Source: Chloroflexales bacterium
GTDB lineage: Bacteria; Chloroflexota; Chloroflexia; Chloroflexales; Roseiflexaceae
Assembly: GCA_038214135.1 (NCBI GenBank)
Contig: JBBQSD010000016.1
Location: forward strand, 460 to 64,459
Reading direction: 5' to 3'
DNA: 64,000 bases
In this document: positions 23,233-38,461 of the stretch, one piece after another
Position numbering within the stretch: the first letter of the stretch is position 1
How the letters are laid out: each line of letters opens with the position of its first letter
Program-made: the position numbers and the translations under genes
Notes under the pieces: generated by a model
The model's database searches: none
Seen by the model: the letters and a program-made list of their open reading frames with translations, nothing else
What the model was told of the DNA's origin: nothing

Positions 23233-24894
23233 CTACGCCGGTTCCTCAACAATACTATTGCCAAACGCATCAACGGCATAGGCGCTTGAGCCGGCATCAT
23301 AGCCAGCGGCATACGCAGCCCGCTCGGCCTTAATCCGCGCTTCGCGAGCGGCCAAGAGCTTATTCATCGCGCCCAGATAGGCTTCCGCAGCAGCAACAAT
23401 TGTATCGGTGTTGACACTATAGCCGCTATACACCGGTGGCCCACGTCGGCCAGCCTGCTCCGCAGCACCCTGCTCACTGATCCGCACCGTCACTTCGGCA
23501 ACAGCATCAATGCCTTCCGTGATTGCGTTAATCGCAAATTCGGTGAGTTCTGCCGGGCGCTTAATCACCTTGTTCATGGCCTGATAGACGGCATCGACCG
23601 GGCCAGTTCCGTGAGCAGCCTCGGTGAATACTTGCCCATCCGGGCCGCGCAATCGCACCGTTGCAACCGGGGTAACGCCAGTTCCACATGTGACCTGGAC
23701 ATGTTCGATTGCGAAAATCTCGGGCACATGCTGGGTTTCACCAGCAATCAGCGCCTCGATATCACGGTCATCGACCATCTTCTTGCGATCACACAGTTCC
23801 TTAAAGCGGGTGAACACTGTCTGGAATTCCTGATCGGTCAACTGGTAGCCAAGCTTTTCGACATGTTTGCGGAAGGCATGGCGACCACTATGCTTACCCA
23901 GAACCAGTTCGTTTCCATCGAGGCCAACCGATTGTGCATCCATGATCTCGTAGGTCATACGGTTCTTGAGCACGCCATCCTGATGGATGCCCGATTCGTG
24001 GGCGAAGGCATTCGCACCAACAATCGCCTTATTCGGTGGTACCGGCACGCCAATGAACGAACTGACCAAGCGGCTTGAACGGGCCAATTCCTGTGAATGC
24101 ACCTTGCTATCGACACCATAGAACTGATGGCGGGTTTTGAGCGCCATGACCACTTCTTCAAGTGAGGCATTGCCGGCTCGTTCGCCAATACCATTGATTG
24201 TACATTCAATCTGGCGAGCGCCATTATGCACACCGGCCAGCGAGTTGGCAACTGCCATGCCAAGATCATCATGGCAGTGGGTCGAGATGATCACATTTTC
24301 GGCACCAGGGACATTGGCACGGATTCCGGCGATCATGGCACCATATTCTTCGGGGGTTGCATAGCCAACTGTATCGGGGATATTCAGCGTTGTTGCACCA
24401 CACTCAATCGCCACCTTGAGCGTCTGATACAGGAATTCCGTATCCGAGCGCGAGGCATCCATTGGCGAGAACTCAATGTCATCGCACAAGCTGCGCGCAT
24501 AGCTGACCATCTCGCCAATCAGTTCGAGCGCCTCACCACGGCTTTTGCGGAACTGGTGTTCGAGGTGAATATCGGAGGTGGACATGAATGTATGGATGCG
24601 CTTCTTCACCGCCGGCTGAATCGCCGTCCAGGCCTTATCAATATCGTCCTTATGGGCACGCGCCAGGGCAGCAATCGTCGGGCCATCGGCAGTACCAACT
24701 ATGCCAGCGATCTGGTGAACGGCAGCCCAATCGCCAGGGGAAGCAGCCGGAAATCCCGCCTCAATAATATCGACATTCAGGCGGGCCAACTGGCGGGCAA
24801 CTTCCAGTTTCTCTTCCAGGGTCATCGTGCAGCCAGGGGCCTGTTCGCCATCGCGCAGTGTCGTATCGAAGATACGTACGTGATCTTCTGACAT
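23233..24894 (-). CDS. leuA: 2-isopropylmalate synthase
   Basis: [13 protein letters not shown] and [14 protein letters not shown] motifs, plus a C-terminal LeuA dimerisation/regulatory region. 553 aa. Confidence 0.93.
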
Positions 24895-24918
24895 TATTTC
24901 TCTCCCTCACCTGTAAGA

Positions 24919-24984
24919 ACTCAGGAGTCAGGAGTCAGAAATCAGAATGACAACTGCTGACTTCCGACTCCTGACTCCTGAATA
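24919..24984. repeat. STRR-like heptamer inverted-arm element
   Basis: TCAGGAGTCAGGAGTCAG (24921-38) ... CTGACTTCCGACTCCTGACTCCTGA (24957-81). It fills the leuA-ilvC spacer. Confidence 0.9.
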
Positions 24985-26007
24985 CTACGCCCCACCCTGC
25001 CCAGGAATAACCTCGCGCGGGTTGACGAATGGCATCATGCGCCGCAGATCACGACCAACCTGCTCAATTCGGTGATCGACATCGGTTGCGCGGGCCTTGT
25101 TGAAGCGCGGGCGCCCGTTATGGTTCTCCTCGATCCAGTCCTCGGCAAAGGCGCCGCTCTGAATATTGGCCAGCAGTTGCTTCATAGCAGCCCGAGTCTG
25201 CTCATTGATGATCTGTGAGCCAGCCACATAATCGCCCCACTCAGCCGTATCGGAAACCGAGTAGCGCATGTAGTTCAGGCCACCCTGGTAGAACAGATCA
25301 ACAATCAGCTTCAGCTCGTGCATGCACTCGAAGTAAGCGACTTCCGGCTGATACCCTGCGTCAACCAGTGTCTCGAAGCCAGCCTTGACCAACGCCGACA
25401 CACCGCCACACAGAACCGCCTGCTCGCCAAACAAATCGGTCTCGGTCTCCTCGGCGAAGGTTGTCTTCAGCACACCAGCCTTGGTGCTACCAATACCCTT
25501 GGCATAGGCCAGCGCATCCTCAAATGCATGGCCGCTGGCATCCTGATGAATGGCAACCAGTGCTGGCACACCACCACCCTGGGTATAGACCTCGCGAACC
25601 CGGTGGCCTGGTGCCTTGGGCGCAACCATGCTGACATCTACACCGGCTGGTGCAACGATCTGGCCATAGCGAATGTTGAACCCATGGGCGAACATCAGCG
25701 TCTTGCCTGGCGTTAAATCCGGCGCAATATGATCGCGATACAACGCTGCCTGGCCAGTATCGGGCGTGACGATCATAATGATCTGTGATGCCTTGGTCGC
25801 ATCGGCAACCGAAAGCACCTCAAGGCCATCGGCCTGCGCCTTAGCCCAGCTTTTCGAGCCTTCGTACAAGCCGACACACACATCGAGGCCGCTATCTTTG
25901 AGGTTGCGGGCGTGGGCATGGCCCTGGCTGCCATAGCCAATGACCGCAATCTTGCGCCCATTCAGTCGATTAAGATCCGCCTGATTGTCGTAATAAAGCT
26001 CTGCCAT
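24985..26007 (-). CDS. ilvC: ketol-acid reductoisomerase
   Basis: [21 protein letters not shown] motif. I set the start to ATG 26007 (MAELYYDNQ), which has GAGGAG upstream. Confidence 0.95.
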
Positions 26008-26035
26008 GATCTCCTCTGATCCATATTTACAAATC

Positions 26036-26230
26036 AGGAACCAGGAGTCCGAATGCTCACTGCGCTCGCTGATAACACACAATTATTCGGGAAGTATTCA
26101 GGAGTCAGTATTCAGGAGTCAGAATACTCGCTGATAACGCCATAGAGTATTCGGGAGCCACAATAAATGGCGGAACATCTCTTCTGACTTCTGACTTCTG
26201 ACTTCTGACTTCTGACTTCTGACTTCTCGC
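26036..26230. repeat. composite repeat: duplicated unit, heptamer arms and (TTCTGAC)x6 microsatellite
   Basis: The unit ..GAATRCTC..GCTGATAAC..TATTCGGGA occurs twice. It also contains GTATTCAGGAGTCAGTATTCAGGAGTCAGAATA and six perfect TTCTGAC copies at 26182-26223. Confidence 0.9.
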
Positions 26231-26231
26231 C

Positions 26232-26774
26232 CTAATTCATCGTCGGTACTTGCTCGGGGGCGTGTCCATTGCTCTCCAGCACATCCTCGGCAGCGTGGCC
26301 ACGGCCCCCACGAACCATTGCGATCCGTCCGGTTCGCATCATCTCCTTGATACCAAATGGCTTGATCACATCAATGAAATTCTGCACCTTCGCTGGCGAG
26401 CCGGTCATCTCCACCACCATTGTATTTGCGCCAACATCAACGATTTTCGCATCGAAGATCTCGGTCAGCGCCACGATTTCGGGCCGCTTGCCGCCAGGAA
26501 TATGCAATTTCGCCAGTACCATCTCCCGCTCGACCGTCGGGTCGTTGGTGACATCACTGACTTTCAGGACTTCGATCAGGCGGTAGAGTTGCTTCACAAC
26601 CTGCTCAACATCCTCCCACTCGATCACAACCGTCAACCGGCTGACGCCTGGTGTCTCGCTATGGCCAACCGCCATGCTCTCGATATTATAGCCGCGCCGC
26701 CGGATCAACCCAATCACGCGGCTGAGCACACCAGCCCGATCCTGAACCAGCGCCACAATCGTATGTTTCTTCAT
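26232..26774 (-). CDS. ilvN: acetolactate synthase small (regulatory) subunit
   Basis: ACT domain HTIVALVQDRAGVLSRVIGLIRRRGYNIESMAVG. 180 aa. It lies 20 nt downstream of ilvB. Confidence 0.93.
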   Translation of the reverse strand: MKKHTIVALVQDRAGVLSRVIGLIRRRGYNIESMAVGHSETPGVSRLTVVIEWEDVEQVVKQLYRLIEVLKVSDVTNDPTVEREMVLAKLHIPGGKRPEIVALTEIFDAKIVDVGANTMVVEMTGSPAKVQNFIDVIKPFGIKEMMRTGRIAMVRGGRGHAAEDVLESNGHAPEQVPTMN

Positions 26775-26794
26775 GAAAGCACTATCCTTTGTTA

Positions 26795-28528
26795 TTACGC
26801 CTCGGATGCATTCACAATCATCTCGCCAATACTCTTGTTCTGTGGCACCATCGGGAAGACATTCACCTCGCGCTCAACCCGGAAGTCGATCAGCACCGGG
26901 CCATCAGTTGCGTAGGCCTCTAGGATTGCTGCCTCAACATCCTCACTGCGCTCGACGGTAATACCTTTCCAGTGGTATGCTTCGGCCAGCTTGGCAAAAT
27001 CCGGGCCGGAGAGCGGGGTACCGCTATAGCGCTTGCCCTCAAACAGCTCCTGCCACTGGCGCACCATACCAAGATAGCCATTGTTGATCACGGCAATCTT
27101 GACATTCTTGATCCCTTCCTGGATCATCGTCGCCATTTCCTGGTTCATCATCTGGAAGCCGCCATCGCCGCAAATCGCCCAGACGGTATCTTCGGGGTGA
27201 GCAATTGCCACACCCATGGCCGCAGGAACCGAGAAGCCCATTGTGCCAGCGCCACCAGAGGTAATATGCGTTCGTGGGCGGTACCAATCGAGCAACTGAG
27301 CGGCCCACATCTGGTGCTGGCCGACATCGGTGACGATTCGGTATTTGCCACGTGTATTGACTATCTGAGTCAGCGCATTATAGACATCAACAGGTGGGAG
27401 TGAAACACCCTCATCGCGTTTTGAGTATTGTTGCTTGGGCTGGTGCTGGTGCTGCATCTCGCGGATATGTTCGAGCCAATCAGATGCGTTACCATGCAGA
27501 ATTGCCAATTCTTCGCGATCTGGCAGTTCGTCCATCAGCGCCTGGAGCACCATGCGTGCATCACCGACGATTGGGATGGCAACCTTCACATTCTTGCCGA
27601 TTTCGGAGGGATCGATATCGACATGAATGACCTGGGCGTTCGGCGCAAACGTGCTGGCCTTGCCTGTCACACGGTCATCGAAGCGGCCACCAATATTGAA
27701 CAGCACATCGCATTCCTGGATGGCGCGGTTAACGTGAACCCAACCATGCATTCCTGGCATCCCAATACTCAGCTGATGATCCTCGGGGATTGAACCAATC
27801 CCGTGCAGTGTCGTGATCACCGGAATATGCAAGCGTTCCGCAAATGCCCGCAATTCTCCATCCGCACCGGACATGATCACGCCATTACCAGCCATGATCA
27901 ATGGCTTCTTGGCTGCCAGCAACAGTTTGATCGCCTCACGGATCTGTTTGCGATTGCCCTGGTAGTTTGGCTTATAGCCAGGCAGGTTGAGTTTGATATC
28001 CCAGTTTGGCACAACCGATGCCATCATCGCATCCTTGGTGATGTCGATCAGCACCGGGCCTGGGCGGCCTGTGGTTGCAATATGGATCGCCTCTTTGAAG
28101 ACATATGGCAGTTCATCGGCCTTCTTGATCAGATAGTTATGCTTGGTAATCGGCATCGTGATGCCAGTAATATCCGTTTCCTGGAAGGCATCCTTGCCCA
28201 GCACATGGCTACCGACCTGGCCGGTGATCGCCAGAATTGGCGTGCTATCCATCATCGCATCAGCAATCGGGGTCACGAGGTTGGTGGTGCCTGGGCCGCT
28301 GGTTCCAATACAAACGCCAATGCGGCCTGTTGCACGCGCATAGCCTTCGGCAGCGTGGCCAGCACCCTGCTCGTGGCGGCAGAGCACATGGCGCAATTGA
28401 TCACGATATTCCCACATTGCATAATAGAACGGCATGATTGCCCCACCCGGTATGCCGAACATCACGTCCACGCCATCACGGATCAGCGCCTCACACATAA
28501 TCTGAGCGCCGGTACGCTTCTCTGACAT
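26795..28528 (-). CDS. ilvB: acetolactate synthase large (catalytic) subunit
   Basis: ThDP motif GDGGFQMMNQE and an FAD/ThDP enzyme layout. I set the start to ATG 28528 (MSEKRTG), which has GAGGAGG 5 nt upstream. Confidence 0.93.
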   Translation of the reverse strand: MSEKRTGAQIMCEALIRDGVDVMFGIPGGAIMPFYYAMWEYRDQLRHVLCRHEQGAGHAAEGYARATGRIGVCIGTSGPGTTNLVTPIADAMMDSTPILAITGQVGSHVLGKDAFQETDITGITMPITKHNYLIKKADELPYVFKEAIHIATTGRPGPVLIDITKDAMMASVVPNWDIKLNLPGYKPNYQGNRKQIREAIKLLLAAKKPLIMAGNGVIMSGADGELRAFAERLHIPVITTLHGIGSIPEDHQLSIGMPGMHGWVHVNRAIQECDVLFNIGGRFDDRVTGKASTFAPNAQVIHVDIDPSEIGKNVKVAIPIVGDARMVLQALMDELPDREELAILHGNASDWLEHIREMQHQHQPKQQYSKRDEGVSLPPVDVYNALTQIVNTRGKYRIVTDVGQHQMWAAQLLDWYRPRTHITSGGAGTMGFSVPAAMGVAIAHPEDTVWAICGDGGFQMMNQEMATMIQEGIKNVKIAVINNGYLGMVRQWQELFEGKRYSGTPLSGPDFAKLAEAYHWKGITVERSEDVEAAILEAYATDGPVLIDFRVEREVNVFPMVPQNKSIGEMIVNASEA

Positions 28529-28671
28529 CAAAACCTCCTCATTACGATTGCTGCGTGCCATTCGTGGGTGTCATCGGTTGCGATTCCCGGCATGTCGGCA
28601 CAAGCGGGTCTGCCGTAGGCAACATCATCGTCGCCTCGGGTGGATGACGGCATCGTCGGTGCGGTGAGATA

Positions 28672-28712
28672 CGTACACAAACTGAACGGCCCCTCCCGGT
28701 TTGGGAGGGGCC
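28672..28712 (-). terminator. attenuator terminator of the ilv-leu leader
   Basis: Minus strand GGCCCCTCCC-AAACC-GGGAGGGGCC is followed by GTTCAGTTTGTGT. It lies between the leader ORF and ilvB. Confidence 0.6.
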
Positions 28713-28756
28713 GTGTGTTTCACCATCACTGAACCTACGCTTTTCCTCCCAGCTAC

Positions 28757-28825
28757 CTATAAGCCCTTGATAATAATCAGGACTACAAGAAGAAGGCTAA
28801 GAAGGAGATTTGAGCGCGGTGCCAT
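28757..28825 (-). CDS. ilv-leu leader peptide MAPRSNLLLSLLLVVLIIIKGL
   Basis: A 22-codon ORF in which 12 of 13 consecutive codons are Leu/Val/Ile. It is flanked by a promoter and a terminator. Its SD is weak (GAAAGAA). Confidence 0.65.
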   Translation of the reverse strand: MAPRSNLLLSLLLVVLIIIKGL

Positions 28826-28864
28826 CAGCGATATTCTTTCGTCAAACAATAGAGAGCTATTGGT

Positions 28865-28892
28865 AGTATACCGCGGATGAGGAAATTGTCAA
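28865..28892 (-). promoter_or_regulatory. sigma-70-type promoter of the ilv-leu operon
   Basis: Minus strand TTGACA (28892-28887), 16-nt spacer, TATACT (28870-28865). It sits immediately after the sortase stop codon. Confidence 0.6.
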
Positions 28893-31779: not shown

Positions 31780-32844
31780 ATGAATGATCGTATTCCTCGT
31801 ATCGACCAGATCGTGGAGGCTGCGATTGAGCAGCACATTTTTCCTGGTGCCGTGGTGCTGGTTGCAGATGGGCCAACGATTCTGCATCTCGCAGCCTATG
31901 GCACAACCATGTATGCCTCGTATGCCTCAAATTCGCCTGCCGTCACAATCGATACCATCTACGATATTGCCTCGCTGACCAAGCTGTTCACGGCAACTGC
32001 TGCATTATGTTTGTGGGAACAGGGCCAAATTGATCTTGATGCATCTGCGGCATTATATCTGCCTGAACTCCAGGCGAAGAGTGTGACAATATGGCATTTG
32101 CTGACTCATACATCTGGGCTTGATCTACAGCTCTCTGTTGCGGCACGCGCTGGCCAACATATGCTGATCGATGCAATCTATAGCGCGCCGCTTCGCCAAA
32201 CACCCGGAAGCGCCGTTGCCTATACCAATATCAACTCGCTGCTGCTTGGCGAGATTGTTGCACGGGTAGCGGGCATGCCGTTTGATGCAGCAATTAATCG
32301 GTTGATCATCCAACCACTTGGGCTACATACAACCTGTTTCCAGCCACCAAGCGCATTGCAGCATCGTATAGCACCAACTGAACACGATACAGAATGGCGA
32401 CAGCAACTCATTCATGGAACGGTTCACGATGAGAGTGCCCATGTGCTAGGCGGAATCGCAGGGCATGCCGGGCTGTTTAGTACCGCCAGTGATCTACACA
32501 AATTTTGTATGGCCTGGATGGGCAACACAAGCGCGCAACACGACCCAATGAGTACACAATCCCCATTGCTGCTATGGCCCGAGACGATTGCATTGGCGAC
32601 GAGTAACCAGGCCGTTGGGCTTGGGCTTGCGTGTGGCCTTGGTTGGATGATCGACCGACCGAATGTGATGGGATCTGCACCAACTGGCACATTCGGGCAT
32701 ACCGGCTTCACCGGCCCAGCAATTATTATCTGCCCACAGCTTCAGCGAATTATTATCGTGCTTAATAATCGCGTATTTCCACGACGAGGGCCATCAACAC
32801 ACCATTCAATCATTGCTGCTATCGTTGATACAGCGCTTTCCTAA
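31780..32844 (+). CDS. serine hydrolase, beta-lactamase (class C/PBP4*-like) family
   Basis: SxxK (IASLTKLF), YxN (AYTNIN) and HTG (FGHTGFTG) motifs. 354 aa. Confidence 0.85.
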   Translation: MNDRIPRIDQIVEAAIEQHIFPGAVVLVADGPTILHLAAYGTTMYASYASNSPAVTIDTIYDIASLTKLFTATAALCLWEQGQIDLDASAALYLPELQAKSVTIWHLLTHTSGLDLQLSVAARAGQHMLIDAIYSAPLRQTPGSAVAYTNINSLLLGEIVARVAGMPFDAAINRLIIQPLGLHTTCFQPPSALQHRIAPTEHDTEWRQQLIHGTVHDESAHVLGGIAGHAGLFSTASDLHKFCMAWMGNTSAQHDPMSTQSPLLLWPETIALATSNQAVGLGLACGLGWMIDRPNVMGSAPTGTFGHTGFTGPAIIICPQLQRIIIVLNNRVFPRRGPSTHHSIIAAIVDTALS

Positions 32845-32895
32845 TCAAATTCCAAACCGTTTCGAATCACAGGGAAACAAAGTTGCAACATATTA

Positions 32896-32924
32896 TTGGC
32901 ATGTGTTGTGCTATGCTGTATATG
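32896..32924 (+). promoter_or_regulatory. candidate promoter of the ANTAR regulator gene
   Basis: TTGGCA, 17-nt spacer, TATATG, about 60 nt upstream of the ATG at 32986. Confidence 0.3.
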
Positions 32925-32985
32925 TTAAACGAGCTGATAACAAACAGCTCCTGATACTGCCAAGCCGCATAAGAAGAGGCCGACC

Positions 32986-33570
32986 ATGCCAGTTACTCGA
33001 ATTCTTGTAGCAGAAGACAACGATCTCGTCGCGCTAACACTTGAAGAGCAGCTCAAAGGCCTTGGCTACGATGTGATCGGCATTGCCCGTACTGGTGTGG
33101 AAGCAACCGAGCTTGCTTCACGGCTGAGTCCCGATCTGATCATCATGGATATTCGTATGCCCGAGATGGAAGGGACTGAGGCTGCCTCACGGATTAACAA
33201 CCAGCGCCCAACCCCCATCCTGATGCTGACTGCCTATACAGATCGTGAAACGATTCGCAAGGCAGAACTGGCTGGCGCTCTCGGATACCTGGTCAAGCCT
33301 GTCAACGAGGCCGAACTATCGCCGGCAATCAATATCGCACTGGCCCGTTTTCGCGAGCTTCAAGCCCTACGCAATCAGGTCGTCGAATTGGAAGATTCGC
33401 TAGAGGCCCGTAAACTGATCGAACGTGCAAAGGGCATCCTCATGCAGCGGCTTGGGCTCAGCGAACGTGATGCCTATGAGCGCCTGCGCCAACGCGCCCG
33501 TGACAAGCGAGCCAAGATGAAGGATATTGCCCAGGCAATCATCGAAGCCGAGGAATTGCTGAATACATAG
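32986..33570 (+). CDS. response regulator with ANTAR RNA-binding output domain (PdtaR/AmiR-like)
   Basis: REC motifs ILVAEDNDLV, DLIIMDIRMPEMEG and LTAY..KP. ANTAR region LEARKLIERAKGILMQRLGLSERDAYERLRQRARDKRAKMKDIAQAII. Confidence 0.9.
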   Translation: MPVTRILVAEDNDLVALTLEEQLKGLGYDVIGIARTGVEATELASRLSPDLIIMDIRMPEMEGTEAASRINNQRPTPILMLTAYTDRETIRKAELAGALGYLVKPVNEAELSPAINIALARFRELQALRNQVVELEDSLEARKLIERAKGILMQRLGLSERDAYERLRQRARDKRAKMKDIAQAIIEAEELLNT

Positions 33571-33571
33571 C

Positions 33572-33600
33572 TTGACGCTGTTCGGAATGTATGCTATATT
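33572..33600 (+). promoter_or_regulatory. sigma-70-type promoter of the aro leader
   Basis: TTGACG (33572-77), 17-nt spacer, TATATT (33595-600). Confidence 0.6.
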
Positions 33601-33633
33601 CGCTGCGTCAAGCAAACGGAGCATGTGTAACTC

Positions 33634-33717
33634 ATGAACAACGCGATACGTCAGCAATCATGGTATGGCTATTTTTATTTTACCGGCTCACATAGGAGAC
33701 TGGTTGCTTCGCGTTGA
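33634..33717 (+). CDS. aromatic amino-acid leader peptide MNNAIRQQSWYGYFYFTGSHRRLVASR
   Basis: A 27-codon ORF whose codons 10-16 are W Y G Y F Y F. It lies between a promoter and a terminator, upstream of aroH. GGAG lies 12 nt upstream, which is long spacing. Confidence 0.6.
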   Translation: MNNAIRQQSWYGYFYFTGSHRRLVASR

Positions 33718-33744
33718 GATTAAGTTAGGTTAGGTATAAACAGG

Positions 33745-33790
33745 TGGCGTGGAGCAACAAGCTCCACGCCATTTTGTTTGCTCTCGTTTT
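33745..33790 (+). terminator. attenuator terminator upstream of aroH
   Basis: GGCGTGGAGC-AACAA-GCTCCACGCC is followed by ATTTTGTTTGCTCTCGTTTT. An alternative 11-bp pairing exists between 33703-33713 and 33748-33758. Confidence 0.75.
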
Positions 33791-33829
33791 GGGCACTCTG
33801 CTATGCCGTTGCCAATGGAGGAGATGTGT

Positions 33830-34246
33830 ATGACCCTTTGCTGCCGGGGGATTCGCGGAGCCACCACCGCCGATGCTAACACCCGCGAGGCTATTCTAGA
33901 GGCCACGCGTGAAATGCTCCAGCAGATCATTCTGGCCAATGATCTGCTGGCTGATGATATCGCAAGCGCGATCTTCAGCACAACCCCGGATCTCAACGCG
34001 GAATTTCCAGCGGTTGCTGCCCGCGAATTGGGCTGGCTCGATACGGCACTCATGTGTACGCACGAAATGGCGGTTCCTGGCAGCCTCGAACGCTGTGTTC
34101 GTGTGCTTATTCATTGGAACACCACCCGCCGCGCCGATGAGATCATTCATGTCTATATCCGTGGGGCACGCTGGCTGCGCCCTGAGCTTGCAGCTGCGCT
34201 CCCAGCCCGGCTGGCAGCAAAGCAACAGGTCGCCTCCGATGGCTAG
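33830..34246 (+). CDS. aroH: chorismate mutase, AroH class
   Basis: MTLCCRGIRGATT...TPDLNAEFPAVAARE resembles B. subtilis AroH (IRGIRGATT, TPDL..FPA). I set the start to ATG 33830, which has GGAGGAG upstream. Confidence 0.88.
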   Translation: MTLCCRGIRGATTADANTREAILEATREMLQQIILANDLLADDIASAIFSTTPDLNAEFPAVAARELGWLDTALMCTHEMAVPGSLERCVRVLIHWNTTRRADEIIHVYIRGARWLRPELAAALPARLAAKQQVASDG

Positions 34247-34249
34247 GAG

Positions 34250-34355
34250 CCAAGTATTCAGGAGTTAGGAGTCAGGAGTCAGAATACGAGAACGAGCTGA
34301 GAACCAAGCATTCAGGAGTCAGGAGTCTGAATATGGGAACGAGCTGAGAACCAAG
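34250..34355 (+). repeat. tandem duplication of a 47-54-bp heptamer-containing unit
   Basis: CCAAGYATTCAGGAGT(TAGGAGT)CAGGAGTCWGAATAYGRGAACGAGCTGAGAA occurs twice (34250-34303 and 34304-34350), followed by a partial third start. Confidence 0.9.
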
Positions 34356-34381
34356 AACTAGGTAATAGCCAAAACTACTGA

Positions 34382-34587
34382 TTGATCGCAGCCGAGGCAT
34401 AGGCAACTAACATCGCAGTGCCACAAAGGTGCATTTGGGGTTCGGGGCAAGGCCCCGACCGTGGGTCGTGGCCGGGGTACCCTTTGGGTCTGGCACCCCC
34501 GGACGGGACCGCCCTGACCGCAGGTGCGGGGCGCGTAGCCCCGAGCAAACGGCAGATAACCAACAATTATGTAAGGAGAACGGCGGC
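34382..34587 (+). other. ~206-nt GC-rich leader element (candidate cis-regulatory RNA or repeat), copy E1
   Basis: It starts with TTGATCGCAGCCGAGGCAT. The identical 19-mer, in the same orientation and at a similar distance (212 nt) from a start codon, occurs at 42646-42628 on the minus strand. Confidence 0.35.
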
Positions 34588-35628
34588 ATGATCGTCATTA
34601 TGAGCAACAGTGCGACCCAGCAGGATATCGATACGGTGCTGGAGCGCCTGAAGGAGCACAACTTGAGCGGCAAAATCATTGTTGGCGAAGAACGCAGCAT
34701 CATCGGGGTTGTTGGCGCAAGCATCCCGCCAACCCTGAAAGAAGAGATCGAACGCTTCCGAGGCGTGCAGGAGGCAACCCGCATCACCAGGCCGTACAAG
34801 CAGGCATCGCGTGAGTTCCACCCCCACGATACAATTGTTAACGTGCGTGGAGTCATCGTTGGCGGCAAGCAATCAGTGGTGATCGCCGGACCGTGTGCTG
34901 TCGAGAGTGAGGAACAAATCCTGCGTACCGCCCATGCCGTTCGTGATGCTGGTGCAACGATGCTACGCGGTGGAGCCTTCAAACCACGCTCATCACCATA
35001 CACATTCCGTGGGCTTGGCGAACAGGGCCTCAAACTATTGGCTTTGGCACGCGAAGAAACCGGGCTACCAATTGTCACCGAGGTGATGACACCAACAGAT
35101 GTCGATCTTGTCGCACAGTATGCCGATGTGTTGCAAATCGGCGCTCGCAACATGCAGAACTACCAATTGCTCGAAGAAGTTGGCCGCAGCCGCAAGGCAG
35201 TGCTGCTGAAGCGCGGGCTATCGGCCACCTTCGAGGAATGGATGCTATCGGCAGAATATATCATCAATCAGGGCAACCCGAATGTTATTCTGTGTGAGCG
35301 CGGCATCCGCACCTTCGAAACCGCCACCCGCAATACCATGGATCTAAATGCGATTGCATTGGTCAAGCGCCGTAGCCACCTGCCCGTCATTTCAGATCCA
35401 TCGCACGGAACCGGCAAATGGTATCTGGTTGCCCCATTGGCATTGGCCTCGATTGCGGCTGGTGCCGATGGCCTGATCATCGAAGTCCATCCTGATCCAG
35501 ATCGGGCAACTTCGGATGGTGGCCAATCGCTGACCTGCGAAAATTTTGCTGCGCTCATGCCACAGATTGCCGGCGTTGCCGCTGCTGTCGGCAAGCATCT
35601 ACAGGTGCCAATGGCAGTGCCAGCGTAA
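34588..35628 (+). CDS. aroF: 3-deoxy-7-phosphoheptulonate (DAHP) synthase, type I-beta with N-terminal ferredoxin/ACT-like regulatory domain
   Basis: [20 protein letters not shown] and [11 protein letters not shown] motifs, plus a ~70-aa N-terminal extension as in the Thermotoga enzyme. I set the start to ATG 34588, which has AAGGAG 9 nt upstream. Confidence 0.9.
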
Positions 35629-35700: not shown

Positions 35701-35728
35701 TTGACGCTCCCTTCCCACATGCTATAAT
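35701..35728 (+). promoter_or_regulatory. sigma-70-type promoter of the 897-aa secreted protein gene
   Basis: TTGACG, 16-nt spacer, TATAAT (35723-28), 40 nt upstream of the GTG start. Confidence 0.6.
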
Positions 35729-35767: not shown

Positions 35768-38461
35768 GTGAAGCGATGGACGATAGTTCGGTGTCTTATA
35801 ACTTGTTTTGTAATGGTTCTGATACCACTAGCAAGTCTGACAATCCCCAACGCCCAGGCGCAAACCGGATCACCAAATACATTTACATATAATATTCAGC
35901 CGGGTAATTCGCAATCGCAGAATTTTACTATTCAAAATACGACTGGTGTTACCAAGAACTATACTGCCAGCGCGGTGCTTCCGGGGTCGTTTCCAGCAAC
36001 CCAAATTACCGTAACTGTCTCCCCATCGACACTGCCACAGCTTGCAGCGAATGCATCGACAACGATAAGCACACAGGTGAATGTCGCAGCTGGAACACCA
36101 TTTGGCACCTATGGCTTTTCAATTGCCGTCAACGATGGCACGACAACCAGTACTGTGGTCAATGCCAGTGTTGTTGTCTCTGCACCGACCGCAACGACCG
36201 TCCCAACCTATTCATTAACACCAACCAGCCAGACAATCAGCGCTCCGGCTGGAGGGTCGTCGGTTTCATCAAGCCCGCTGACGCTTACGTCAACAGGGAT
36301 CGGTGTGCAGACGTACACAATCAGCACGAATATTGCCAGTTTCCCTGGTTGGAGTGCCGTCATTCTGCCGAACACAACCCTCCAGATCAATGGTGGTTCA
36401 AGTTCAAATATTACAATTCAGATTACCGCACCAGCGGCTGCAACAACACCAATCGTTCTACAGGTAACCGCCACTCGCCAGAGTGATGGGGCGAATGTCT
36501 CTGCGATTATCAATGTCAATGTGACCGCTGCAACATTAACGCCAACCCTTACCTCAACACTCACACCAACAACAGGCCCAGTTTGCCCAGAGGGTAATCG
36601 TGATCCAGGGAATGATCAGGGAAATGCAAGACTTATTCTTGTTGATACACCCAACAATTATGGCATCTGCTACCAGGGCGATGAGGATTGGTTCAAATTC
36701 GGCGGAATCGGCGGCAAGGTCTATACCATTGATATCACCCGTTTCGATGCTGGCATCGATCTGGTGATTGAACTCTATGATGAGAATGGCGTACGCCTGG
36801 CCGCCAATGATGATTTCTTCGCCCGTACCCCAGCGCCGACGGCCGCTGCCGTTCAGACTCCGCTGCCGACTCGCGATATTGCGCCACGAATCCAATCCTG
36901 GCGTGCGCCAAAGGATGGCATCTACTATCTGCGGGTTCGTGATGCGGCAGGAATTGGTGGCAGTAACAAGACCTATACGCTGGTGGTCTTTTCGGAGAGC
37001 TATGGCCCAACGCCAATAACCGTCTCCGAGATTTGCCGTGATCTGTTTGAAGAGGATGGCCTGCCCGAAGAGGCCAAGCTGATCACATCAAATGAGATCC
37101 AACCAAGCCATCGGCTCTGCCCAGTCGGTGATGCCGATTGGGTGAAGTTCTTTGGTAAAGCTGGCAAAACATACTATATCTACACCGACACGCGCCCGTA
37201 CCGGAATAATCCAGCAGCGAATCCCTCAACCAACGAATCCGAGGCTGGCGCGGATACCCAATTGTATCTGGTAGATCGCGATGGCCTGACGGTTCTCGAT
37301 TTCAATGATGATATTAATGGGCCAGATGGCAGTTCGCTGGACTCGCAGATCCGTTTTGTGCCAAGAGTCGATGGCTTCTATTTCGCACAGGTCAAGAATG
37401 CTGGCGATATTGGCAATCAGTTTATTCGCTATGATCTCGTGCTAACACAATGCGCTCCTGGCAAGGATGATTGTGGCCGCGCCAAGGTGGCAACGACGAT
37501 TGTTGCAACACCAATACCTGCAATCACGCAGACACCCATTTCATTCAATCCAACACCAACTCCTGTTGTTGTCACCGCTACTCCGATCACACTCACACCA
37601 ACGATCAACGCATTTCTGGAACAAACCCAGCGTTCCGGCCTGCTGAATGGCCCATTGATCGGTTTTGCCGATCCAACATTTGGGCAAGTCTGGCAGCGAA
37701 CAGATCGTCCTATCGCACAGGGACGCGCAACCCGCAGTTGGATGTGGGGGCCGCGTGGCCTCATGGCTCGCTCAGAGGGTTATGTTCAAGCGGATGGCGG
37801 CCTGCGGCAGGTACAATACTTCGATAAAGGCCGCATGGAGGTGGGTAATCCAGGCGGTGATCGAACAAGCCCATGGTTCGTCACCAGTGGCCTGTTGGCG
37901 ACCGAGCTTGTGACTGGGCGCATGCAGGTTGGTGATAGCGATTTTGTTCAACGCAGCCCAGCCGATATTCCAATTGCTGGTGATCTCAATAGCGCAACTG
38001 GGCCAACCTATGCCAGCTTCGCAGGTGTAGTTGGCGTGCAAGCTGGAGATCGAAGCGGGAGCTTACCGCTCGACATGATCGACCGCAGTGGGCAAATGAG
38101 TCGCTACAGCGGTTCGGAACAAGCTAACACGCGGTTCACACACTTCGTCTCAGAGACAGGCCATAATATTCCGGGCATCTTCTGGCGCTACCTGAATGCC
38201 AATGGCCCGATCGATGAGGGTGGGCAGGTACGTAACGGCCAGCTGATGAACTGGGTGTTTACGATGGGCTATCCGATCAGCGAGCCATTCTGGGCACGTG
38301 TACAGGTTGGCGGCAGTGAGCGCATAGTGCTTGTTCAGATCTTCCAACGGAGAGTGCTCACCTTCGATCCAGCAAATGCCAGCGCATGGCAGGTCGAAAT
38401 GGGCAATGTCGGGCGTCATTATTACCGCTGGCGTTATGGCGAAGATCTGCCGGTATCGTAG
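35768..38461 (+). CDS. large secreted protein with Ig-like/Thr-rich N-terminal region, two PPC (pre-peptidase C-terminal)-like domains and an unknown C-terminal domain
   Basis: GTG start with signal peptide [34 protein letters not shown]-like motifs are [13 protein letters not shown] and [15 protein letters not shown] linkers are present. Confidence 0.6.

Follow-up and report, generated by a model that had tools for sequence, protein, structure and literature searches.

What governs transcription of the operon that begins with aroH, the gene for an AroH-type chorismate mutase, in the Chloroflexales bacterium represented by contig JBBQSD010000016.1? The stretch analyzed here, referred to as the window, comprises 64,000 nucleotides (nt) of this contig, and the interval upstream of aroH holds a short open reading frame (ORF) crowded with aromatic codons, followed by a terminator. 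A sequence-only reading had proposed that this interval is a ribosome-mediated attenuator in front of aroH and a DAHP synthase gene. Conservation lends that proposal its main support: in a genome scan using one genome per species, which yielded 80 loci with an AroH relative, the layout upstream of aroH (promoter, aromatic ORF, antiterminator strand, and terminator) is kept in 58. Because the aromatic ORF, the terminator, the antiterminator complementarity, and the spacing among them are all retained in these 58 of 80 genomes, the pattern predicted for an attenuator is matched, and the locus is very probably a ribosome-mediated leader-peptide transcription attenuator of the aroH-DAHP synthase operon. 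This reading draws on sequence elements, spacing, conservation, covariation, and predicted folding energies, each of which is reported below as observed. All four features of the sequence-only reading are present, and their positions differ from those it gave by no more than a base or two. Feature coordinates are collected in Table 1, and individual loci are designated by L numbers.

Aromatic codons of the leader ORF

The 27-codon ORF described previously is present in the window, with W-Y-G-Y-F-Y-F at codons 10 to 16, and its six aromatic codons of seven specify end products of a pathway whose chorismate mutase and DAHP synthase genes lie directly downstream. It is the single ORF in the whole 64-kb window with six aromatic residues of seven. 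Among 8,755 small ORFs drawn from both strands of the 80 related loci, 64 encode at least five aromatic residues within seven, and 56 of these 64 are the ORF before aroH; with the leaders excluded, the background rate of such runs is ∼0.1% (8/8,755). A chance origin of the aromatic run is thereby excluded.

Leader ORFs were sought within 450 nt upstream of aroH, and most were found to end 71 to 115 nt before that gene. They range from 18 to 54 codons (median, 26) and contain 4 to 7 aromatic residues of 7. Summed over the relatives, the runs contain 184 Phe, 156 Tyr, and 20 Trp codons; Phe and Tyr codons occur together in every run except that of L038 (Tyr and Trp only), whereas Trp codons appear in only 15 of 58 distinct leaders. 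The earlier description of a mixed Trp, Tyr, and Phe sensor thus fits the lineage of the window and does not extend to the whole family, for which the codon counts indicate a conserved sensor of Phe and Tyr. Run composition is kept while order is not (e.g., WYGYFYF, FWYYFYF, YFFWFWYF, FYTYFFYF, and FYFAYFYFF), which is the pattern expected of regulatory codons rather than of a functional peptide. A check of codon usage revealed nothing notable. Example leaders are MANRVRTFWYYFYFTSLQRNWSLRVV (L001), MQPRSAYFFWFWYFAGSPRDWLLRVE (L005), and MLGSRFYTYFFYFTSRKPDWSLRIS (L014), together with the partial sequences ...GFYFAYFYFFAY... (L053) and MARAYYYFYFYFSWGW... (L079).

Terminator and antiterminator

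Between the leader ORF and aroH, the first structural gene, lies the strong intrinsic terminator that had been recognized from the sequence, with a 14-pair, GC-rich stem (core, GGCGTGGAGC/GCTCCACGCC) and a T-rich tail. It ends 39 nt before aroH, the start codon of which is at 33830 and not at 33831 as first given; translation from 33831 runs into stop codons. The terminator motif occurs in only one copy in the window, and a strong terminator is present in every leader-bearing locus, 58 to 81 nt (mostly 58 to 72 nt) past the last aromatic codon. When 58 sequences were aligned, 93.8% of the alignment cells in the stem were paired, compared to 30 to 68% in shifted registers, and 8 of the 14 pairs showed compensatory changes. 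Among 500 shuffles, none reached the observed paired percentage or covariation score, and one reached the count of 8 pairs.

A simpler account of this hairpin is that it terminates the upstream gene or stands alone, that the aroH promoter lies downstream of it, and that the aromatic ORF is a chance or nonfunctional occurrence. The hairpin is indeed the first terminator downstream of the neighboring gene for a response regulator with an ANTAR domain, and the poor ribosome-binding site of the leader would suit a nonfunctional ORF. However, the strongly conserved promoter sits upstream of the ORF, the terminator-aroH gap of ∼40 to 55 nt contains no promoter-like site, and both ORF and terminator persist in loci that lack the ANTAR gene. 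Moreover, aromatic runs found in ∼0.1% of background ORFs are present here at 56 of 80 loci, and every lineage keeps complementarity between the 3′ end of the ORF and the terminator. We consider this account highly improbable.

That complementarity defines the proposed antiterminator. Segment 2, which consists of the last sense codons of the leader and the first base of its stop codon, pairs with segment 3, which consists of the 5′ arm of the terminator and three loop bases. The alternative helix noted earlier is therefore real, although it extends over 13 bp (33703-33715 with 33746-33758) and not 11; because it uses the terminator 5′ arm, it and the terminator are mutually exclusive. The predicted energy of the segment 2:3 duplex is −20.4 kcal/mol, compared to −12.0 kcal/mol in dinucleotide shuffles of the segment 2 region (z = −3.5; 0 of 100 shuffles as good). 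Complementarity of this kind is found in every leader-bearing locus, with a median z of −2.9 against shuffles, and in the alignment 84% of cells are paired, compared to 33 to 58% in shifted registers. In a permutation test, cognate segment 2:3 pairs averaged −22.2 kcal/mol versus −19.1 kcal/mol for noncognate pairs, a value that none of 10,000 permutations matched, and in the most divergent loci (L050, L053, L054, L070, L074, and L079), the locus’s own partner ranked first. It is in the distant lineages, where the sequences differ and the predicted pairing is retained, that antiterminator covariation appears most clearly: CCCGUCCCACGCCCG with GGAGCGUGGGACGGA in L074, CGGUUUGGCGCACGUUG with GAGCGUGACGCCAAACC in L079, and CCAUCGCUCCAUGCCCG with AGGAGCGUGGAGCGAUGA in L053.

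The position of segment 2 relative to the codons is also constrained. It begins 6 to 24 nt past the last aromatic codon (mostly 16 to 20 nt; 20 to 21 nt in the window), and the stop codon lies at or after its end in all loci but L030, by 1 to 7 nt in Chloroflexales and by 19 to 30 nt in Anaerolineae and Ardenticatenia. A ribosome at the UGA of the window leader spans 33698 to 33727, i.e., the whole of segment 2, so that a stop-codon ribosome masks this strand while a ribosome at the regulatory codons leaves it free.

The same evidence bears on the view that the short ORF encodes a functional, aromatic-rich micropeptide (membrane active or a signal, for instance) that is merely cotranscribed with aroH. 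In favor of this view are conservation of the ORF and a C-terminal motif, W-L/S-L-R-V/T, that is found repeatedly in Chloroflexales. Yet the part of the C-terminal coding sequence that is conserved is precisely the strand of RNA pairing with the terminator, the tails in Anaerolineae and Ardenticatenia are entirely different while the RNA complementarity is retained, and the run itself conserves composition alone, not residue order. A peptide function is accordingly given very little credence.

Folding of the leader RNA and proposed mechanism

Two further elements, neither of them listed in the sequence-only reading, occupy the leader ORF. The first is hairpin H, which directly follows the last aromatic codon. 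Its alignment cells are 84% paired, compared to 7 to 48% in shifted registers, and its covariation exceeds that of all 500 shuffles; in 43 full leaders, the only structures that RNAalifold predicted were hairpin H and the terminator. In distant lineages (Anaerolineae), this place is taken by another hairpin. Hairpin H may act as a pause or timing hairpin. The second element is a putative anti-antiterminator strand, segment 1 (33639-33660), which is complementary to 33701-33716. In the window, the segment 1:2 helix comprises 8 + 8 bp with a 6-nt bulge (−20.5 kcal/mol; z = −2.3), and it is contained in the unconstrained minimum-energy fold (−64.8 kcal/mol; z = −4.5). One relative, L045, provides an example in which both strands of segment 1:2 change together.

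The sequence-only reading had suggested folding the leader with and without a ribosome mask. In the full-length transcript this comparison does not discriminate, as the terminator has a probability of 1.00 under any imposed ribosome footprint, the stop-codon position included. The expected difference emerges only in truncated, nascent RNA. When the transcript ends at 33760, a footprint on codons 10 to 15 gives an antiterminator pair probability of 0.88 to 0.98; with the footprint on codon 16, segment 1:2 re-forms and the antiterminator probability drops to 0.26.

Several observations weigh against the attenuator reading. Both translation of the leader ORF and termination in vivo are predicted events. 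The only Shine-Dalgarno (SD)-like element of the leader, GGAG, is poorly placed at 12 nt from the ATG (a weakness that the sequence-only reading had correctly flagged), and the close relatives L001, L005, L006, and L008 likewise lack a well-placed SD. Of 57 distinct sequences, 56 have an open leader frame, but 44 and 35 are also open in the other two frames, which makes an open frame barely discriminating. On the MAFFT alignment, antiterminator covariation does not rise above column shuffles. This null result arises because segment 2 is nearly invariant, with U opposite A or G, and therefore follows A-U to G-C changes in the terminator; support for the antiterminator thus comes from the per-locus duplex z-scores and the cognate-versus-noncognate permutation test. 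Across the relatives, segment 1:2 has no statistical support (median z = −0.5) and its position varies. In many of them the segment 1-like complement lies in the 5′ untranslated region, where a stalled ribosome would not directly cover it; a CGCGAAGC-like complement is often found at the transcript 5′ end instead. The model is weakest in its segment 1:2 element and in the role it gives hairpin H. Finally, the equilibrium fold of the full-length RNA is the terminator whichever footprint is imposed, so the switch must be kinetic, as in classical attenuators; the order of folding events and the response to amino acid supply are likewise predictions.

The attenuator would then operate as follows. 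Transcription would proceed from ∼33607, and a ribosome would translate the 27-codon leader. When Phe-, Tyr-, and Trp-tRNA are plentiful, the ribosome would reach the UGA at 33715 and cover segment 2 (33701-33716); segments 3 and 4 would pair, the terminator would form, and RNA polymerase would halt at the U tract at ∼33775 to 33790. A ribosome stalled at the Trp, Tyr, or Phe codons (33661-33681) would instead mask segment 1 together with the 5′ arm of hairpin H and leave segment 2 free to pair with the terminator 5′ arm as soon as the latter is made, thereby blocking the terminator and allowing transcription of aroH and the DAHP synthase gene. If the leader were not translated at all, segment 1 (33639-33660) would pair with segment 2, and termination would be the default outcome.

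Distribution across genomes and metagenomes

All 58 leader-bearing loci are from Chloroflexota, apart from one record labeled Gracilibacteria, and one of them (L041) is a degenerate copy. The lineages represented are Roseiflexaceae, Chloroflexus, Oscillochloris, Kouleothrix, Herpetosiphonaceae, Ardenticatenia, Caldilineae, Anaerolineae, and other Chloroflexota. The record labeled Candidatus Gracilibacteria (L049; JAAUTF010000275.1) carries a Chloroflexales-type ANTAR gene, an aromatic leader, aroH, and a DAHP synthase gene and is probably a misbinned Chloroflexales contig. In the remaining 22 of 80 genomes (Dehalococcoidia, Planctomycetota, one Gemmatimonadaceae, and a few other Chloroflexota), no leader was found at aroH.

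One genome adds an observation of a different kind. L069 (Chloroflexi bacterium DBS2-1.bin66) carries a distinct aromatic leader, MEARGRFGYWFGYFYRPVGGGCAWAG, and after it the hairpin GGCCGCCG-TCCA-CCGGCGGCC (positions 1211-1345); ∼1.7 kb and two further ORFs separate this leader from aroH downstream. Some of the genomes scored as leaderless may therefore carry a leader at the head of a longer operon.

A DNA-pattern scan of metagenomes, which was blind to the downstream gene, returned 120 matches, mostly due to chance, of which 101 were without a leader. The other 19 were further aromatic leaders, and all 19 lie directly before aroH; one of these copies (L163) is from the same species as the window.

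Among the sequenced relatives, leaders of the Oscillochloris type (L013, L015, L021 to L024, L029, and their relatives) contain an extra conserved inverted repeat (e.g., CTGTC...GACAAC) between segment 2 and the terminator, at alignment columns ∼143 to 175. This repeat, which is absent from the window, may form a lineage-specific additional hairpin.

Promoter and translation signals

The promoter identified earlier, TTGACG-N17-TATATT, scores 10/12, and its spacer ends in TGC, i.e., an extended −10 element; transcription is expected to start near 33607. A promoter of the form TTGACN-N16-18-TGnTAnnnT occupies the corresponding position in 54 of 57 leader-bearing loci, at a median of 40 nt upstream of the leader start codon, and the spacer is N17 in 51 of these 54.

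Some relatives have a better-placed ribosome-binding site than the window, with an SD 7 to 9 nt upstream of the leader ORF in L017, L028, and L012. In the window, a 4-codon mini-ORF on the plus strand (ATG TGT AAC TCA TGA, 33623-33637) begins 1 nt past the GGAG, and its stop codon overlaps the leader ATG (ATGA, 33634-33637). Given the poorly placed SD, this mini-ORF could have a bearing on leader initiation. The start of aroH, by comparison, is preceded by a strong SD, GGAGGAG.

Neighboring genes and alternative regulators

The order of features, all on the plus strand, is ANTAR regulator, aromatic leader, aroH, DAHP synthase gene, and an 897-amino-acid ORF (Table 1). Homologues of the AroH protein belong to Chloroflexia/Roseiflexaceae, which puts the organism within Chloroflexia and near Roseiflexaceae. 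The DAHP synthase gene, which is downstream of aroH in almost all leader-bearing loci, is the probable second gene of the operon; a promoter and terminator scan found neither a promoter-like site nor a strong terminator-like site in the gap between the two genes. The other plus-strand terminator-like match of that scan was one weak 6-pair hairpin within aroH (34087-34101). The 897-amino-acid ORF has a near-consensus promoter of its own, TTGACG-N16-TATAAT (35701-35728), and its position is kept in many Chloroflexales loci at 43 to 72% identity.

Table 1. Coordinates of the leader elements and surrounding genes in the window
Feature	Position	Strand	Details
Receiver + ANTAR response regulator, PdtaR-like	32986-33570	+	Pfam; best PDB match 1s8n, E = 5.4e-49
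Sigma-70-type promoter	33572-33600	+	−35 TTGACG, 33572-33577; 17-nt spacer; −10 TATATT, 33595-33600
GGAG, only SD-like element of the leader	33618-33621	+	12 nt from leader ATG
Leader ORF, 27 codons, MNNAIRQQSWYGYFYFTGSHRRLVASR	33634-33717	+	ATG, 33634; stop TGA, 33715-33717
Segment 1, putative anti-antiterminator strand	33639-33660	+	33639-33646 with 33709-33716; 33653-33660 with 33701-33708
Regulatory codons W-Y-G-Y-F-Y-F	33661-33681	+	TGG TAT GGC TAT TTT TAT TTT; codons 10-16
Hairpin H	33682-33704	+	ACCGG, 33682-33686, with CTGGT, 33700-33704; directly after last aromatic codon
Segment 2, antiterminator 5′ strand, GUUGCUUCGCGUU	33703-33715	+	Last sense codons + first stop-codon base
Intrinsic terminator	33742-33790	+	14-pair stem, 33742-33755 with 33761-33774; loop AACAA; U-rich tail to 33790
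Segment 3, terminator 5′ arm + three loop bases	33746-33758	+	Pairs with segment 2
aroH-type chorismate mutase, 138 amino acids	33830-34246	+	Pfam CM_1, E = 3.9e-45
DAHP synthase with N-terminal ferredoxin-like domain	34429-35628	+	Pfam DAHP_synth_1 (E = 1.2e-77), DAHP_snth_FXD
897-amino-acid ORF downstream of DAHP synthase gene	35768-38461	+	No Pfam match
ilv-leu operon	23233-28561	−	ilvB, 26795-28561; ilvN, 26232-26774; ilvC, 24985-26082; leuA, 23233-24894

The upstream gene, which the sequence-only reading did not list, raises the question of whether a protein, rather than a ribosome, controls the terminator. ANTAR proteins act on terminators, and their RNA target consists of two tandem short hairpins with hexaloops in which position 1 is A and position 4 is G; the second hairpin overlaps the terminator. 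The PdtaR-like regulator might thus bind the leader RNA and block the terminator, leaving the short ORF incidental or secondary. Its receiver + ANTAR gene ends 2 nt upstream of the −35 box with no terminator in between, and it adjoins the leader in 33 of the 58 leader-bearing loci, with 73 to 92% protein identity. In the other 25 loci, however, no ANTAR gene is adjacent; L060 shows just a 34% match, and that on the opposite strand. Tandem AxxGxx hexaloop hairpins are absent from 33561-33835, and a single, chance-like case was seen among 57 relatives. The Rfam scan described below likewise returned no ANTAR-type match in the leader, and control by an ANTAR protein would leave the aromatic run, the stop position, and the codon-to-helix spacing unexplained. 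Antitermination by the ANTAR protein is therefore judged quite improbable, and its gene is probably unrelated to the attenuator. As observations in their own right, the regulator is better conserved (at the identities given above) than AroH, and the genes examined upstream of it included none identified as a sensor kinase gene.

A variant would retain ribosome-mediated attenuation and make the leader a dual-input switch, in which tRNA sensing is combined with the PdtaR-like regulator acting through an RNA target unlike the dual-hexaloop motif; hairpin H would be a candidate site. We regard this combination as improbable. If it were true, both a phosphorelay signal and tRNA charging would feed into the control of entry into aromatic biosynthesis.

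The terminator might also be controlled by a T-box, which senses tRNA, or by a metabolite riboswitch. T-boxes have been reported in Chloroflexi, and in Firmicutes they regulate aromatic amino acid genes. An Rfam 15 cmscan of 32500-35000 with 4,227 families, permissive filters, and E values up to 10 gave nothing in the leader. Furthermore, the ORF, hairpin H, segment 2, and the terminator together explain the conserved parts of the ∼180-nt leader. A T-box or riboswitch is therefore extremely unlikely, and the Rfam scan rules out membership in a curated leader, T-box, or ANTAR-type family.

Comparison with known attenuators

Although the sequence-only reading knew of no characterized example of one mixed Trp, Tyr, and Phe sensor in front of DAHP synthase and AroH, a direct functional precedent for the proposed attenuator is the aroR leader of Corynebacterium glutamicum. 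There, according to the work of Neshat et al. 2014 as summarized in PMC11802643 and PMC7356990, a leader peptide with Phe-Tyr-Phe attenuates the aroF (DAHP synthase) operon; read-through rises under Phe limitation, and in the summary of PMC11802643, only Phe limitation is effective. Both systems place a short, mixed-aromatic leader ORF before an operon with a DAHP synthase gene, and in both (here as a prediction, for aroR as the summaries describe it) read-through increases when ribosomes stall for want of aromatic aminoacyl-tRNA. In contrast to the Chloroflexota leaders, which have 5 to 7 aromatic codons and include Trp in some lineages, aroR is actinobacterial and has three regulatory codons with no Trp. 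Here aroH is the first gene, whereas a chorismate mutase gene in first position is not evident for aroR from those summaries. The comparison with aroR covers gene layout, regulatory codons, and described behavior.

In Escherichia coli, trpL is the archetype attenuator, and pheL attenuates pheA, which encodes chorismate mutase-prephenate dehydratase (PMC11802643). PMC2659441 lists an aroF attenuator that senses Tyr-tRNA. Like pheL-pheA, the Chloroflexota locus presents a run of aromatic codons and then alternative terminator and antiterminator structures before a chorismate mutase gene, but pheL contains Phe codons only, and the pheA operon lacks a DAHP synthase gene. The pheA product is a fusion protein with a fold different from that of AroH. 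With trpL, the locus shares the proposed four-segment logic (a putative 1:2, 2:3, and 3:4), in which a stop-codon ribosome masks segment 2 and stalling frees it, and the window leader has a putative segment 1 that abuts the regulatory codons, much as in trpL. It differs in that trpL has only two Trp codons, that the Chloroflexota leader adds a small hairpin after the regulatory codons, and that many Chloroflexales relatives place the segment 1-like element at the 5′ end of the transcript. No RNA homology to either E. coli leader was detectable, since the Rfam scan, with E values up to 10, matched neither Phe_leader nor Trp_leader. The terminators targeted by EutV, NasR, and AmiR resemble this locus in that the leader terminator lies beside a receiver + ANTAR gene; unlike those targets, the leader lacks dual hexaloop hairpins and also occurs without an ANTAR gene.

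Neither the searchable literature nor Rfam yielded a description of leader-peptide attenuators in Chloroflexota; for an aromatic leader in Chloroflexi in particular, no description was found in the searchable literature, which did not cover the broad survey of Lopatovskaya et al. 2010 (Mol Biol 44:128). The attenuator logic is known; what is distinct here is the lack of detectable RNA homology to curated families, the longer, mixed F/Y(/W) run, and the aroH-DAHP synthase target.

Implications for Chloroflexota

The window contains a second leader-peptide candidate, on the minus strand at 28686-28892, before ilvBNC-leuA. It consists of a promoter, TTGACA-N16-TATACT (about 28892-28865), a leader ORF with a run of Leu, Val, and Ile codons (MAPRSNLLLSLLLVVLIIIKGL; ATG at 28825 to stop at 28757), and a GC-rich hairpin with a T-rich tail after the ORF (28714-28686). 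This candidate suggests that attenuation is a general strategy in the organism.

The attenuator proposed for aroH extends textbook leader-peptide attenuation to Chloroflexota and leaves the understanding of the mechanism itself unchanged. It would place one aromatic-codon sensor over both the first committed step of the pathway (DAHP synthase) and the Phe/Tyr branch point (chorismate mutase). Neither the ORF nor the terminator is currently annotated in Chloroflexota genomes, and the ∼58 genome and 19 metagenome sequences collected here suffice to seed an RNA family and to improve annotation in this phylum. As the Trp content of the run varies, the family also offers a natural experiment in the tuning of sensor specificity.

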